A stretch of DNA of 63,834 bases, counting the filler, from Globobulimina sp. (taxonomy: Eukaryota): assembly GCA_003354225.1 (NCBI GenBank). It is 36 parts of 36 records of this genome, joined end to end, with 100 filler letters (N's around TTAATTAATTAA, not from the genome) between each part and the next. Parts side by side here need not be neighbours in the genome. Positions count along the whole stretch, not along the records: positions 7,109 to 8,785 come from PIVH01013246.1; 35 more parts are not named here. The stretch is one strand, 5' to 3'. This document shows positions 1,778-12,339 of the stretch, piece after piece. Both the position numbers and the translations under genes were made by a program. The notes beneath the pieces were generated by a model. The model saw only the letters and a program-made list of their open reading frames with translations. It searched no databases and had not been told where the DNA came from. How positions within the stretch are numbered: the stretch's first letter is position 1; each line of letters begins with the position of its first letter.

Positions 1778-4112
1778 CACTAATCATATATATTAGCTAA
1801 TCATATGCATGTATATAATCCGCATTTTGTTTCCGCACTTGTAAAAACTGTTCCGCAAAATCACGACTTTGCACTTTGACTTTTCCGCAATGATTGTTCC
1901 ATAAAACATAGCAAAACTCCGCAACTATGTTCCGCAAAAATAGTGCCGCCGCCGCCGTCACAGGTAGCATGGACATTACAGCCCAAACAAGATTGGTATT
2001 CCCCATTATTTTTTCCAGCACAGTCAGTGATGCATATTTTAGATCGCATGGTTTAAAACAGGAATATTGCTAATATATGTATGTACATATGGATGTTGTT
2101 TATTGTGTAGAAAAAAAAAGAAATTACAAACAAAATATAATGTTGTAACCGCTGCTCGTTTGTATGAACATAGCAAAAAAGATAAAACATGAGATAAATG
2201 AGGTAAACATTGTGGAGTAAGTTGTTTATTTAGGAGTTTAAAAACTGCTAAATCAAGGGAAATATATTTCACTTATTTTATGCTTTGAAACTTCAAAAAC
2301 GTACATTTCTGGTGTCCTAATTTATCTGGAAAACCACCATTTCTGGTGTCCTAAAAAAATTGGAAAAATGTCACATCAACCACCGTTAGTACTGCACAGA
2401 CCAAACAAAAGACAAAGATTGGAGTTCAATGAAAGGATGGCAAGATATTCAAATTCGAGTAACAATCATAATAATAATAACAATAATAATAACAACAACA
2501 ATAACAATCATAATAGTCATATATAATAACAATTAAACATGGACAAAAACAAAGAAGGAAAAAACAATGGAACAAAAAAAGAAAGATTTGATACCACGAA
2601 TTAAAAAAGAATTGAGATATTCAACATAATGTGATATGATATTTATTGATCCACAATTGAAGTATTGGTATTGTCACTCAACTATTGTATTTTGCAGCTG
2701 CTGTCAAACCATGTGACTGTGAACTAATCATAACAAATTATATTGGGATGCTGCAGCACCGGAAAGAGGAAGAACACATTCACCACCAGCACCATGTATT
2801 GACTAATAAAAATAATTTTTCTTTTTAAAAATTGATGGGTCATTCGAGTTTTTTGCGCACTTGCGAGACTAAAAAAAACGAATCATCTAAATCAGGACAG
2901 AAAACAACAAACTCCTAATCATATTTTGAAAGCACTAAAAGTTTTATTTCGTAATTGCAGATTTTAAAATTCTGCTAAATTAATACCTAAAAACAACTAA
3001 ATAAACAGCATATTGTGGAGCAATGTCTTAATTGACTATGTCCAACTAACGGTTTTTGAAACGTTAACTTTACACTGCGATGTCTTTTAGATTGCCAATT
3101 CTAAATATGATTCTCATTATTGAATTTCATTTAGCTGTTTCTACAACTAAACAGAAATCATATTTAGAACAATCTAAATTCGAGCCTTCCCGACTTTTTT
3201 TATTTTGCACAAAAAAGCTATTAGGAGCTATTTAAATGTCCAACTCTCACATTTCCATCAAATGTTTGAATATTTTGTCTTTATACATATTTTCATAATC
3301 ATTGTCGTTCATGTTTTAGTATCCATAGACTTTTTGGATTTTGGAACTTTGCGATTCTTCTGTCCCGCTGCAGATAGAAACGTTTCTCAAGGTTTTGAGC
3401 AGGTTTTTCTGTCAATCAGCAACGCATTTGTTAACTTATAACGTTTTTGTCACCNNNNNNNNNNNNNNNNNNNNNNNNNNNNNNNNNNNNNNNNNNNNTT
3501 AATTAATTAANNNNNNNNNNNNNNNNNNNNNNNNNNNNNNNNNNNNNNNNNNNNTATGAAACTATTATGACATTGATTACTTTAGACATTTTTGCTTTAT
3601 CGTAAAAATCTGTTTTTAAACAGAAAAAATCAGTTTTTTCCCTTAGAAAATAGATTTTCACGATAAAGCAAAAATGCCTTTTGAAATTAATATATTGCGG
3701 CGAGAAAATTCGAGAAAATATTGTATGATGATCCTTGCGCATATCATGCATAAGATTCTCTTATGTTACAACTTTCCTCTTTTGATTTTTGTCCCTTTTT
3801 TCTTTGCTCTCGCTTTCTTTTTCCCTTTGAGTTTAGACTTTGTGAACCAAGTATCAAAATCTATTGAATCATCCATGGTTCCAAATAATGACCAGATCCA
3901 AGTTAAAGGTGAAACATTCAACATATTATTATTTATATTCCAATCATAGTTAAATTTATGTAACGTAGAAATGCTTGGCGATATATTGCTACATAAATTA
4001 CGTGATATTTGACAATGGAGATGTGAATCAATATTTTTTGCATATTTTGCCGTTCGTTGAATACATCGCATCATCTTAAAAAAAACCTGCAAAAACTTGT
4101 CTTACTAATATA

Positions 4113-5231
4113 ATGCCTGGTAACTGTCATTTGTGCAAAAAAGCTGATGCAAAGGCATCTTGTGGCGGATGTAAATCAGTATTTTATTGTGATCGACAAT
4201 GCCAAGTTAAACATTGGAGTACACATAAGTTAGAATGTAAAACATTTAGATCTGCAAAAGAAGACGAAAAAAAAGAAGAAGCATTGGATATGCATGACTT
4301 CACATTTACGTTGCCGCCATTCGATGAGACATCAATCCGCATTCAACAAACAAATAATTGTGGATATGGTATGTTTGCAAACTGTGAAATTAAGAGAGGA
4401 ACAACAATCTGTAAAGAAAAAGCAATGATGGTATTACCTGAATATGCAAAACAGAAAACGACATTTTATATTAAACAGCAATTTCTATTATTATCAGAAA
4501 CGCAAAAAAATATTTATAAATCACTGTCGCGTAAATCTAACCAAAAGCAGCCATATAAGGATAATGACAACGTAACATTGTTAAATATTTTTGTAAATAA
4601 TCAAATTGTAATTAAACAGAGAAAATCATGCTGTATTTTTCCGTTAATATCGCGTGTAAACCATAGTTGTGTTAGCAATGGGCATTGGATATGGAATGAA
4701 AAAATGAACGAAGAGCGATTGATTGCTTTGAATGATATCAAGAGCGATGAAGAAATATTTGCAAATTATTGTGACGAATGGCCCAAAACCAAAGGAGAAA
4801 GAAACAAAGAATTGAAAACGAAATGGAATATTGAATGTAAATGTGAGTGGTGCTCAGATGACAGCGATATTGTAATAAACGAATATAATAAATTGGAGCA
4901 GTCATTGGAATCATTAATATCAAATCCATTGAATGGTTATAAATCGGCGCAAAAATTGGTGAAAATGGTTGAGAAACACTTTAATTCAAATGCGAATTTG
5001 CTGAATAAACATTGCTATTCGACTGCGCAGTTTGCACTGGGATTACAAAAATGGAGTGAAGCGTCATATTATTTGGAACGAGCGATAAAAGAAAAACAAA
5101 TTGCAGAAGGACTGGATATTGAAATTGACAGTGTTTTTATGGAAAAGGTGTATTTATTACCAACGAGATTTAGAAGTAGATTTAGGAAATTTGATAAAAA
5201 ATATATTAAAGAGAGAATGCACAAAAATAAT
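4113..5231 (+). CDS. MYND zinc finger + SET domain lysine methyltransferase (SMYD/SET5-like), 3' end at contig edge
   Basis: CHLC..CGGC..YC...CQVKHW..HK..C MYND; GYGMFA, RVNHSC, EEIFANY SET motifs; post-SET CKCEWC; TPR-like tail. Confidence 0.92.
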
Positions 5232-5331: not shown

Positions 5332-5566
5332 AAATCTGACTGGTCAGAATAATATGCTGACCGCAGAGCTAAAGGGAAATTACTATAGGAATATCATATC
5401 GTATGTTGACCGGTCAGATTTGTCCCATCGATCACTGCATTTCGCTGACCAGTCAACCATCAAAATTCAGGTCATAATCTACTGACTGATTTCATTCTGA
5501 TCTGTCAGATTTATTTTCTGATCTAAAATTCTGACCTGACAGACTGTTGACCATCATTCTTGACCG
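5332..5566. repeat. Cluster of short palindromic TGAC-NN-GTCA motifs (repeat or transposon-end like)
   Basis: ctgactggtcag, ttgaccggtcag, ctgaccagtcaa, ctgatctgtcag within about 230 bp. Confidence 0.5.
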
Positions 5567-6007
5567 TACGTTTTTGTAAAATATTTTATCATTTTCTTTT
5601 AATATAATTCGTAATATGTTTATTCGAACCACAAATATTAATTTATTAAACTTCCACTCCTTTATCTCTTGTAATCGCAATGTATTTGCCCTCCACCCAA
5701 ACGATTGCCCGCTCATAGTATATGTGGCTATGGCTGTATGGCTGGATTTTGTTTGTGGCGATTCAATGCTTCTGTTAATTATTATACTTTTCCAGGGCGA
5801 GGGTAATTTTATTAATTCCAGATACACCTGAAATGAACCAATTTCTTCTTCTGTCCTTCCATTTGGGAATATAAAAATTCGCCAATTAATTTCTCCAATT
5901 TTAAAGACGTCAGACACGAAATATTGCTCGTTTGGTGAGTTAGTTATTTTTTTAATTAATGTGGGATCAGCAATGTCCCATTGATATGTTCCTTGTCTTA
6001 CTGACAT
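5492..6007 (-). CDS. MATH/TRAF domain protein, probably 3'-truncated by the repeat region
   Basis: YQWDI..FVSDVFKIGEINWRIFIFPNG..FQVYLEL..SFGW..LIFVVRINI. Confidence 0.75.
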   Translation of the reverse strand: MSVRQGTYQWDIADPTLIKKITNSPNEQYFVSDVFKIGEINWRIFIFPNGRTEEEIGSFQVYLELIKLPSPWKSIIINRSIESPQTKSSHTAIATYTMSGQSFGWRANTLRLQEIKEWKFNKLIFVVRINILRIILKENDKIFYKNVRSRMMVNSLSGQNFRSENKSDRSE

Positions 6008-6079
6008 GTTTACACTAACCGCATATTTAAATAATTCAGATTAAAATCTCACTTTCGAGTATTCTACTTAGCTCTAACC

Positions 6080-7108: not shown

Positions 7109-8785
7109 CTTTTTTGACGAATTTTTTAGCTTCCTTAAATTGTTTCATGTTAACATTATGTGAATCTTCTTCCTGTGACAATGAATCATTGTCTTTTGCC
7201 ATAAATTTGACATTTCCAGTTCCATTATTCCACATAAATACCGGTAATTGATTGGTATCACCCAATTCTTGTTGTATTTCATCAAATAATTCGCTTAACA
7301 TTTGACCTTCGCCATACTGCATCAATGATGCTTTTGTTTTTTCAACAAATTTATGGATCACAAATGAACCCCTCGTTGTCTGCATATATTTGTACATGTA
7401 CAGTATATACAAGTTATATGGGTTTCCAGCAAACCATTTTGTATAAAAAGTTATAACATACACTCATATTTGATCGAAATCCGACATTTGCTGCGTGAAT
7501 GGTGGCCAATTTATAATCGGGGTTTTTGTCACCTTTCTGCCACGATGGTTTATGTGAGGAAGCCTCCAATTGTTGCATACCATATTGTTTCCCAATCACA
7601 CTCACCACGCTGTCCACGTGTTTCCTTCTATCGTTCCCATCGCAACAATCAAACAGTACTATCCGTGGAATATTGCGCGATTCAGGATGGTCAATCGAGA
7701 ATATTCTATGAATTACATTCTTTTCAATCTTGCGATGATCGCTGGTAATAATATGGTCCTGGATGCCATGACTGGATAAAACCAAAATCAATCCATCAAA
7801 TCTGTCAATATCATCATTATACTTATCATCGCAGCTCGAAATGAGATTATATTCCAATAATTGTGCCTGTTTTTTCAACAATGCAATTAGTTCAAGCTCA
7901 GTCCAATGCGTTTTAATTTTAGTGGACTCACTGTATTGAGGATATATTTGATATCTCAATGCATCTTTGAACAAAGATAATAAATTTCTAATGTCAATAT
8001 GAACGGGTAAGTCAGTGACGAATGTATCGCCTAAAAAGTCCGACTGTTGAGGTTGCTCATCGTACTCACCAATGCCTAATAAAATAACCATGGGATTGGA
8101 CAATGGAATGATTTTATCCTTTGGTGCTTTGGCCTTTGATGTCTTACGACAACAAAAGCAAATACATACTGTGAGTATAACAAGTATTATTATGAGCGCT
8201 ACATAAAACAATGGTGTTTTAATTAGGAACAATATGCCTTCCACGAGCACTGCCATTATGTCTTTTGTGTCTCCTGTGGTTTTTGGAGGGACATCCTCTG
8301 CATTTGAGGAAACATTGGCAGTGCCGGTCTGTGTCGAATTGACTGCTTCCGTTGTATCAGAATCGTGAGCGCTTAATGTGGCAAATAAGTAGCTGGGTGC
8401 CGGCGATTGCGGTGATAATGTAGTGGCCGTGGAGTTGGTATAAGTTATATTGCTTACTTGATTCCTAATTGGTGTGTATTGAGAAGCAGCAGAATAAACT
8501 GGACAGATAGAAAAGAGTCCGCATGAATTAATATTAGTAACACCGCCAACATGTATAATAAACATCCATTCTGTGTCAGGTTGATATGTGATTGAAGCAA
8601 AAGCGTATACAGCAGTCAACATTGACTCTTTGGTACTCCATTCGTTGCGTGTGATATTATAGAAATATGCAGTACTGAATGCATCCACATATGATACCGA
8701 TGCAGCACCACCAGCTAAATAGATACCATTTGAGTTTGCATTATAAGCAAAACTACTCGTTATCGCAGCAGGTATGGCGCTGACT
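7109..8785 (-). CDS. Membrane-anchored caspase-like (peptidase C14) protein: Kelch repeats, S/T stalk, TM, p20 + p10; partial at both ends; intron 7380-7461
   Basis: IYLAGG..YNITRNEWS and IIHVGG Kelch; TM LFYVALIIILVILTVCICFCC; MVILLGIGEY, LILVLSSHG (His), PRIVLFDCCDG (Cys); GTATGT...TGCAG intron joins to TTRGSFVIHKF...LFDEIQQEL...QLP. Confidence 0.82.
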
Positions 8786-10561: not shown

Positions 10562-10894
10562 ANNNNNNNNNNNNNNNNNNNNNNNNNNNNNNNNNNNNNN
10601 NNNNNNTTAATTAATTAANNNNNNNNNNNNNNNNNNNNNNNNNNNNNNNNNNNNNNNNNNNNTTCAAAGTTCTAAAAGTCCTGGAATTCCTAAAAACGAC
10701 AATGATTATGAAAAGAAACTGAGCGACAATGATTTTGACAATTAGTATAACAGATTTAAATCGATATCAAATTTGTCAAATCTGGGAAAAGCCCGAAATA
10801 TGTTGTGAAGTAAAGTAAGTTTTTAAACACAAATCCTGGCATTAAAAAATATAAATTAAACACATACACATAAAAACACTAGTTTTCCCACTAC

Positions 10895-11839
10895 CTATGA
10901 TTTAAAAGAAAGCGATCGAATTGATATTATAATTTGAATTGTAAAATAGTTTAATTTTTTTAATTTTAAAGATTCAAATCTATTGTCACCAACAGCCCCT
11001 TTCCCTTTTGACTCCATAGTCTCGCCATCATAAAATTTAATTTCAGGAATACAAAACTCAAAACGAAAAGTAAATGAATTAATTGTTTTATGCGGATATG
11101 ATTCCAATTTTAATCCATATCTAAACCGTCCATCATCTTTTACTGTGTGTTGTTTACATAATGGATAAAATACAAATTTATTATCTTTTTTATTGGTTTC
11201 AATCAAATGTGAAATATTACATTTTATATCTTCGCCTTTGATTTGTTTCCCACTCCAAAACGATTCAAGTTGTTTTCCTTCAATTTTCCATTTAAAATGC
11301 GATACTTTCTGCAATCCAATATTTTTATTTACAAATTTCTCACTTAAAAACAACGAAAACGTACCAAATTTCATGTTTTTATCGTTTTTTTTATTTCTCT
11401 TAATCAACTTTGAAAACCCAGAAACCGATTTTTTTGTACTTTCTACCGGTGCTTTGATTAAACATTCTTGTAATTCAAGAATAAAAAACTGAAATTCTTC
11501 TTCATTGATCCAAATCGTATCAATATTATCACAAAAATGATTGAACAATGTTTGTAAATACGACGGTATCTTATAAGTATTCTCATTATTATTCTGCATA
11601 TAATTCGCCATCATATAAATCAATGTTTTCTCATATTTCACCTGAAATAATTGCTTATCGTGGCGAATAAATGAGCCATTGATAATCTTTTGAAACAATT
11701 TCAAACATTTTACATGATATTTGGTAGACGTTCCATTATAAATTATATTGTTAAAGGACCAGTTATTACACATAATTAACCTCTCTTCTTCCTTGGGGTA
11801 ATCGCTTAAAAACGACACATTCACAAAGACCGGACCGCG
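10895..11839 (-). CDS. C-terminal part of an AT-rich eukaryotic protein (ART-like SDYPKEEERL motif; MATH-like tail), fused in frame to the bacterial segment
   Basis: Strongly AT-rich codons, stop at 10895; composition differs sharply from 11840-12339. Confidence 0.6.
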   Translation of the reverse strand, partial: RGPVFVNVSFLSDYPKEEERLIMCNNWSFNNIIYNGTSTKYHVKCLKLFQKIINGSFIRHDKQLFQVKYEKTLIYMMANYMQNNNENTYKIPSYLQTLFNHFCDNIDTIWINEEEFQFFILELQECLIKAPVESTKKSVSGFSKLIKRNKKNDKNMKFGTFSLFLSEKFVNKNIGLQKVSHFKWKIEGKQLESFWSGKQIKGEDIKCNISHLIETNKKDNKFVFYPLCKQHTVKDDGRFRYGLKLESYPHKTINSFTFRFEFCIPEIKFYDGETMESKGKGAVGDNRFESLKLKKLNYFTIQIIISIRSLSFKS

Positions 11840-12339
11840 GCTATCCGCTTTGCCCAATGCAATAACGGGCAGGCCTAAAATCATCGTATTGGTGAGCGTT
11901 TTATCTTCATCAATAAACGCGCGTACTCGATAGTTTTCAGACGCTCTTAGCGCAACAGCCAATTGACGACCACCAGAACCCGCACCGTAGATCAGCACTT
12001 CTTGACGAATATCTTTTGACGTCGTCGCGACAAGATTGCGAACCACCAAACGAGAGCCGCCACATAACAAAGCTAAATAAGCACCGTAAATAATAGGCAC
12101 CGTACGAGGAACTGGTTCTTGCAGGTAATACGCAAAAAGAGCCAAAGATATTGCCGACAATATTGCGCCTGCCGTTACCACAAACAATGCTTGAAAGGTG
12201 AGATACCTAAGTACTGCGCGATAAAGCCCTAATTTAGTAAAAATAAGCACCGTCATTATTACTGTTAAGCCTGTCAGTAATAAGTTGTCCCCATCATTCA
12301 AAAATTCGAAATCGCCTAGCCTTGTCCACAACGCAATGT
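11840..12339 (-). CDS. Bacterial nucleoside-diphosphate sugar epimerase/dehydratase (CapD/PglF/WbfY-like), N-terminal membrane part, Gammaproteobacteria-like
   Basis: KLGLYRAVLRY, VPRTVPIIY, VLIYGAGSGGRQLA..FIDED..ILGLPV. Confidence 0.88.

Follow-up and report, generated by a model that had tools for sequence, protein, structure and literature searches.

We analyzed a window of 63,834 nucleotides from Globobulimina sp., consisting of 36 unrelated contigs of 1,675-1,677 bp each that are joined by spacers and come from a fragmented assembly (70 Mb in 48,370 contigs). Positions 7109-8785 are one whole contig of 1,677 bp (PIVH01013246.1, G000:C13246); as it stands in isolation, it has no true gene neighbours and its gene is cut at both ends. 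On the minus strand, a frame of 456 codons (8784-7417) encodes protein P0001, in which the end portion of a Kelch propeller, a Ser/Thr-rich stalk, one transmembrane (TM) helix, a CICFCC cluster with a basic run and a C14 domain follow one another from the N- to the C-terminus. The N-terminus lies off the contig together with the 5′ part of the Kelch region, and the contig holds no stop codon for this gene. Elsewhere in the window we found a MYND-SET protein (4080-5231, plus strand) and a MATH-like domain that scored below the cut-off (5495-6040, minus strand).

All parts of the gene lie on the minus strand. Residues 1-107 (8464-8784) correspond to approximately the last two, C-terminal blades of the propeller. 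Taken alone, this fragment matches Pfam Kelch_4 below the curated cut-off (E 0.01), but it aligns with a full-length orthologue, P0003, starting at residue 237, and the Kelch repeats reported in the first-pass annotation thus stand through the complete propeller of the orthologue rather than through the fragment itself. The stalk (residues 108-180, 8245-8463) is 33% Ser/Thr, carries N-glycosylation sequons at residues 112, 117, 149 and 157, and matches a stretch of low pLDDT in the P0003 model. P0001 has five sequons before the TM helix and one after it, in line with the earlier suggestion of glycosylation before the membrane, although this distribution is weak evidence. The TM helix (residues 192-210, 8155-8211) has a Kyte-Doolittle hydropathy of 3.19, corresponds to helix 410-443 in the P0003 model, and is followed, as originally read, by the juxtamembrane CICFCC cluster and a basic stop-transfer run (8119-8166). 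The cluster is a possible palmitoylation site.

The first exon of the caspase-fold domain (7462-8103) comprises the large-subunit region, the linker and the start of the small subunit; it matches Pfam C14 above the cut-off (E 8.1e-6) and is recovered in the P0003 model. Its S1 loop (7993-8013) has Leu259 at the position of caspase Arg179, placed by offset, and Asp264 as the equivalent of MALT1 Asp365, aligned with caspase-2. The SSHG and LFDCCDG motifs of the first-pass annotation are both present: SSHG (residues 337-340, 7765-7776), with catalytic His339, aligns with caspase-2 LSHG, and LFDCCDG (377-383, 7636-7656), with Asp379 at the Gln283 position and catalytic Cys381, aligns with caspase-2 IQACRG. 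Further downstream are a linker motif around Lys399 (7579-7599), a candidate self-cleavage site based on conservation of this Lys in the family, and a GFRSNMS substrate loop (7462-7482) with Met440 at the Arg341 position. The latter placement rests on an ungapped, very weak-scoring alignment anchored on GS, in which caspase-2 AAMRNTKRGSWY is matched to the family profile. A GT-AG intron of 82 nt (7380-7461; phase 0, 28% GC), across which P0003 is continuous, separates this exon from exon 2 (7203-7379). Exon 2 encodes the rest of the small-subunit region, with GSFVI, two helices and a strand at ~7230-7247 that we take to be beta6 from the strands of the P0003 model and the topology of caspases, and is 59% identical to P0003 residues 660-740 (E 1.6e-25). 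The C-terminal tail (7109-7202) follows, with no stop codon.

We compared the contig with four of eight public sequencing runs, the types of which are guessed or unknown, reading splicing from the run contigs. Contigs of X1, X4 and X8, which come from three studies, skip exactly 7380-7461, and those of X3 do not reach the intron. This confirms that the 1,677-bp contig encodes a real, spliced gene, including the spliced GSFVI segment noted previously. It could still be asked whether the assembly had fused two genes, one for Kelch/TM and one for a caspase, given how fragmented it is, that another contig in the window looks chimeric, and that the last 29 bases of the present contig lack run support. 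However, one X8 contig spans 7474-8785 gap-free, joining Kelch to protease, one spliced X4 contig (8306-7326) covers the TM helix, the protease and the junction, a full-length orthologue exists, and the layout is common to 126 of 127 relatives. Such a chimera is therefore so improbable that we set it aside, and it is practically certain that one chain unites the Kelch propeller and Ser/Thr stalk with the TM helix and caspase-fold domain, as the first-pass annotation had proposed.

The chimeric-looking contig, at 10663-12339, has a bacterial-type CoA_binding_3 segment (E 3.7e-6) of 40-49% GC fused in frame to sequence of 27% GC, and is probably a true chimera. At the 5′ end of our gene, the X8 and X4 contigs extend beyond the assembly contig by 716-719 nt (716 nt in X8), approximately the length needed for the 236 residues of P0003 that are absent here. 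A separate contig (L033, C44266) carries, at 52-570, Kelch exons that match P0003 residues 91-216. It is about equally identical to P0003 (61%) and to P0160 (59%), a protein discussed below, has no physical link to C13246, and may hold the upstream exons of its gene. At the 3′ end, X4 and X8 contigs depart from the assembly contig at 7138 and go on with other sequence, so that the last 29 bases (7109-7137) are doubtful, being a contig-end artefact or an allele; the point of divergence has no GT. Of 74 variants, 40 were listed, 22 of them synonymous; six of the nine listed in the stalk alter the residue.

P0003, a Bolivina protein of 753 aa, has the layout of P0001 in full length. The whole fragment aligns with it at 49% identity (471 columns), and the two are sisters on the protease-domain tree with a support of 0.997. 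Its Kelch region is recognized by Pfam (E 1.6e-24) and it is positive in a crude hydrophobicity test for a signal peptide. The structural models are of this orthologue, not of P0001 itself, and show a Kelch propeller and a caspase domain, with a disordered stalk and a TM helix between them. The propeller was unreliable in the first AF2 model and was therefore modelled with a Kelch-rich alignment, after which it matched the Kelch domain of LZTR1 (Z 30.5, rmsd 2.6, 291 aligned). When the protease model was ranked against 48,161 chains, caspase-8 came first (Z 24.9, rmsd 2.5, 220 aligned), followed by caspase-9 (23.2), caspase-3 (22.6), CED-3 (20.2) and MALT1 (19.2, rmsd 3.5, 210 aligned), with plant metacaspases (17.9 and 17.7), legumain (15.7) and PIG-K (14.7) lower; metacaspases overall gave 17.9, 17.7, 14.1 and 11.3. 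The best PDB sequence match was caspase-2 (E 1.7e-7), and an enlarged profile gave no better PDB sequence matches. ESM Atlas matches to the protease reached at most 0.85 and serve as leads only. As modelled, the protease fold is thus nearest to animal caspases, which bears out the earlier reading and agrees with the available parts of PMC5982838 and PMC10565124. The model strands and the Z ranking favour a six-stranded caspase-type sheet, with no extra beta7/beta8 seen at the level of strand assignments.

A profile search with the protease domain yielded, when clustered at 50% identity, 389 clusters with E<=1e-30 and 780 with E<=1e-10, and our family analyses used the best 150 of these matches. 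Relatives were named for 18 of 30 entries looked up, and all were foraminifera (14 from Bolivina argentea and four from Nonionella stella). No relative was found in bacterial and archaeal (GTDB) or viral contigs in a search for close relatives with P0018 as the query. Among relatives with at least 60 residues upstream of the domain (n=127), a TM segment was found within 60 residues before the protease in 126, at a median of 15 aa, and just beyond that distance in the remaining one. In the family, net charge is +3.5 after the TM segment versus -1.2 before it and is higher after it in 120 of the 127, placing the protease, by prediction, in the cytosol; Cys residues lie close to the inner end of the TM segment in 87. 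One TM segment with basic residues on its C-terminal side is a feature of type I single-pass proteins. The crude signal-peptide test was positive in 50 of 116 proteins overall, many entries appearing 5′-truncated.

What lies outside this conserved module varies. A Pfam scan of 112 new matches of at least 500 aa identified Kelch (19) and C-type lectin (12) ectodomains, with RCC1, phytase-like, LRR and reelin-like domains once each, while most had no Pfam ectodomain match; a LamG ectodomain is found in P0007, and four of the 112 proteins have a C-terminal SAM domain. The expectation that TM-caspase architectures would occur with different ectodomains is thus borne out. On a FastTree tree of 114 protease domains, with shuffled ectodomain labels as a control, the Kelch label (21 proteins) changes 14 times versus a shuffled mean of 19.5, indicating some clustering, and the lectin label (12 proteins) changes 11 times versus 11.6. 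These label changes point to repeated exchange of ectodomains over one protease module, with the caveat that truncated entries are mislabelled.

In the Globobulimina assembly we examined 41 contigs, and the counts given here are lower bounds. By the same test, the TM segment is present in nine of the 11 family contigs that extend far enough upstream; of the other two, C9 has its TM segment in a broken copy and C40166 has a tandem domain. A second gene with Kelch, stalk, TM and protease is found on C7331 (L039:1052-2332), cut at its 3′ end, and another family member (C266, L056:1-4263) has a single frame of 1,421 codons. We also found a TM member that lacks the catalytic His (L015:2-1957), the broken copy on C9 (L017/L057), tandem domains (L023:182-643) and, in P0072, two inactive copies; these four are possibly regulators akin to cFLIP. 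A second set of caspase-fold proteins is without a TM segment where this could be assessed (L021, L022, L024, L025-L028, L030, L059, L060, L061). They mostly have D-x-C-R motifs, include proteins fused to SPRY (L030), to Myb (L060) or to a RanBP zinc ribbon (L059), and possibly act as downstream partners of the receptor-proteases.

Type I topology cannot distinguish the plasma membrane from an endomembrane and fits both. The proteins might therefore be proteases tethered inside the cell, in the membrane of a food vacuole, an endosome or the ER, and be triggered not by an outside ligand but by their own local density, by stress in the lumen, by ions or by a protease acting upstream of them, the last being a role that the soluble caspase-fold paralogues in the genome could fill. 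Yet the long, varied and exchanged lectin and propeller ectodomains, borne on mucin-like stalks, better suit recognition at the cell surface, and we consider an inner compartment unlikely.

The protease is very probably active. The catalytic His is kept in 149 of 151 rows and the catalytic Cys, the second of LFDCCDG, in 147 of 150, with the first Cys variable; both are intact in 147 of 150. A misaligned dyad had been named as a possible flaw of the first-pass annotation, but the alignment to the caspase-2 motifs upholds its placement. The substrate pocket, in contrast, departs from that annotation, which had read the Cys motif as caspase-like. In caspases S1 is formed by Arg179, Gln283 and Arg341, and in para- and metacaspases, which cleave after Arg/Lys, by Leu179 with an Asp downstream of it, Asp283 and Asp or Glu at 341 (PMC2064784, in part). 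Two residues before the catalytic Cys, where alignment is direct, caspase Gln283 is replaced by Asp in 150 of 151 rows. The Arg179 position is Leu in 142 of 149 and no row has Arg in profile columns 33-35, this position being set by offset (five profile columns here, six in the available part of PMC2064784) and not by superposition. The equivalent of MALT1 Asp365 is Asp in 148 of 149. Finally, the Arg341 position, which depends on the weak ungapped alignment with caspase-2, is Met in 69, Leu in 50 and Cys in 14 of 151 rows, and never Arg, Asp or Glu.

By these alignments, the clade lacks all three Asp-specifying residues of caspases. This mostly para-/metacaspase signature makes cleavage after a basic residue, rather than after Asp, probable, with Lys the likeliest P1 residue. 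The third acidic S1 residue of para- and metacaspases is absent in all rows, so that the pocket matches no characterized enzyme, and the family falls outside the caspases while also lacking one defining residue of paracaspases. That P0001 is nonetheless a true Asp-specific caspase, in effect a one-chain death receptor for animal-type apoptosis, would fit its best sequence and fold matches, which are animal caspases, as well as the branching of Reticulomyxa proteins with animal caspases (PMC5982838, in part). However, Arg179, Gln283 and Arg341 are missing from every row and Pfam finds no CARD or DED in P0001 or P0003, making this reading very unlikely.

The linker after the catalytic Cys has a median length of 49 aa and is variable in sequence, and yet a Lys within it is kept in 121 of 148 rows. 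We parsed the linker in 161 of 186 proteins, 116 of which had a Lys fitting the pattern. In these, Asp or Glu occupies P4 in 86 of 116, versus a background of 23%, and Gly, Ser or Ala occupies P2 in 85; the P2′ column is circular because it was used in selecting the pattern. P0001 itself keeps the Gly-Lys but has Val at P4 in place of an acidic residue. Linker P4 and residue 340 did not co-vary significantly (80/25 versus 6/5, p 0.15). With this conservation, [DE]-x-[GSA]-K is a plausible candidate for a self-cleavage site that matches the predicted acidic pocket. A cut site within the protein's own linker would also be expected if the domain served mainly for self-processing or as a scaffold, maturing or shedding its own receptor or nucleating complexes, with few outside substrates. 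The dyad-less members L015 and P0072 and the C-terminal SAM domains (4/112) fit this as well. Against it, 147 of 150 rows retain the dyad and the caspase fold is complete, and we find it improbable that such functions are the main ones.

Our combined findings suggest that foraminiferal cells convert signals from outside straight into proteolysis. A caspase-fold domain with an intact dyad begins only 15-17 residues from the membrane, below exchangeable binding domains, and is most simply explained as a sensor switched on by clustering. Dimerization via beta6, an edge that two extra strands block in metacaspases, activates initiator caspases and MALT1, although legumain, with the same six-stranded topology, works as a monomer (PMC4357240, in part). 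By analogy, activation by dimerization is likely here. The full chain, namely that this is a foraminiferal receptor-protease of type I, single-pass topology, which is turned on when its ectodomains cluster and cleaves after a basic P1, has in our estimate slightly better than even chances of being correct. A multivalent outside ligand (the surface of prey or a pathogen, a glycan or another cell) would cluster the ectodomains, and the tethered protease domains would pair via beta6 and become active. The activated domains would then cut their own linkers at [DE]-x-[GSA]-K and act on targets in the cytosol or the membrane, with defence, feeding, local cell death or adhesion as conceivable outcomes. 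In animals, adaptors link receptors to caspases; here, the TM tether would take the role of the death-domain/adaptor platform. If this mechanism is correct, a major marine protist group has a large lineage-specific system for signalling or innate recognition, and one that offers a natural test, within a single chain, of activation by induced proximity.

Tentatively, and with odds well below even, these proteins could be a foraminifera-specific receptor-protease class comparable to receptor kinases. It would consist of hundreds of exchanged lectin and propeller ectodomains on a Lys-specific module that, once clustered, cuts itself at [DE]-x-G-K, with a pocket type between those of paracaspases and caspases (a caspase backbone with two aspartates as in paracaspases and a neutral residue at 341) and a possible pairing with a lipid scramblase. 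The last element stems from P0160, in which this Kelch ectodomain, at 59% identity to that of P0003, is joined to a multi-TM membrane domain. The XK-related match of the membrane domain is weak (Pfam E 0.006, below the cut-off; ESM Atlas 0.77), its ESM Atlas matches, at most 0.84, being leads only. Globobulimina has five relatives of it (L070:2-1964, L071:2-1990, L072:1-750, L073:1282-2172 and L081:1-1326), two with Kelch or Kelch-like sequence upstream and none with a Pfam match of its own. Animal caspases activate Xkr8, and by analogy the Kelch receptor-protease and the XK-like protein might be paired receptors that couple the protease to a lipid scramblase.

How do these proteins compare with known systems? 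With the animal initiator caspases (caspase-8, -9, -2, CED-3 and Dronc; MEROPS C14A) they share the fold, the His/Cys dyad, a long linker after the Cys and, probably, by analogy, activation by induced proximity. They differ in being fused to their own TM helix and ectodomain, with no CARD or DED found, and in having Leu/Asp/Asp/Met with a predicted basic P1 instead of an Arg/Gln/Arg S1. MALT1 (C14B), which is dimer-activated with a basic P1 (PMC4357240, in part), has a similar caspase-like fold and the equivalents of its Asp365 and Asp462 (148/149 and 150/151 rows), whereas that of its Glu500 is absent. Pfam finds no death or Ig domains in P0001 or P0003, unlike in MALT1; moreover, MALT1 needs no linker cut, while the P0001 family is membrane-integral with a long linker and a conserved Lys. 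Metacaspases (C14B) share Leu179 and two S1 aspartates, in keeping with the Arg/Lys preference predicted here, but have lower fold scores, and the P0001 family has no acidic residue at 341 and no sign of beta7/beta8 in the model. PIG-K/Gpi8 (C13, GPI transamidase) is also single-pass with a caspase-haemoglobinase domain (Z 14.7 versus the P0003 model). In PIG-K the catalytic domain lies in the lumen, ahead of the TM helix, whereas the P0001 protease comes after the helix, on the basic side.

Caspase-like proteins from Reticulomyxa filosa are likewise foraminiferal C14 proteins nearer to animal caspases than to metacaspases, and the available part of that report mentions no TM helix, ectodomain or S1 analysis (PMC5982838). 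In PMC11463336, as far as the part available goes, a Reticulomyxa caspase-like sequence is used only as an outgroup. Foraminiferal proteins are quoted as examples of caspases outside animals and serve to root caspase trees. That they include a clade without any of the three Asp-specifying residues bears on the order in which the caspase backbone and Asp specificity appeared. New here are the transcript support for the locus, the analysis of the S1 pocket, the linker motif and the Kelch ectodomain shared with an XK-like protein. Within the open-access literature, the scope of our search, we found no description of a eukaryotic receptor-TM-caspase layout. Papers with related transmembrane-caspase wording concerned animal cells, by their titles and the beginnings of their abstracts, and the available part of PMC8195603 does not mention foraminifera.

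The closest parallel in layout is prokaryotic. Membrane-bound orthocaspases of cyanobacteria are predicted to combine a cytoplasmic C14 domain, a TM segment and an outside domain (WD40, with CHASE2 and ANF-receptor in earlier reports), and self-activation on an outside signal was proposed for them (PMC7475262, in part). In that account the WD40 forms have an N-terminal protease and a TM segment precedes the protease in only three of 25 TM-bearing proteins, in contrast to the order of the P0001 family. Thus, a receptor that carries its own protease, which we did not find for eukaryotes in the open-access literature, has a predicted precedent in the TM-orthocaspases of prokaryotes.
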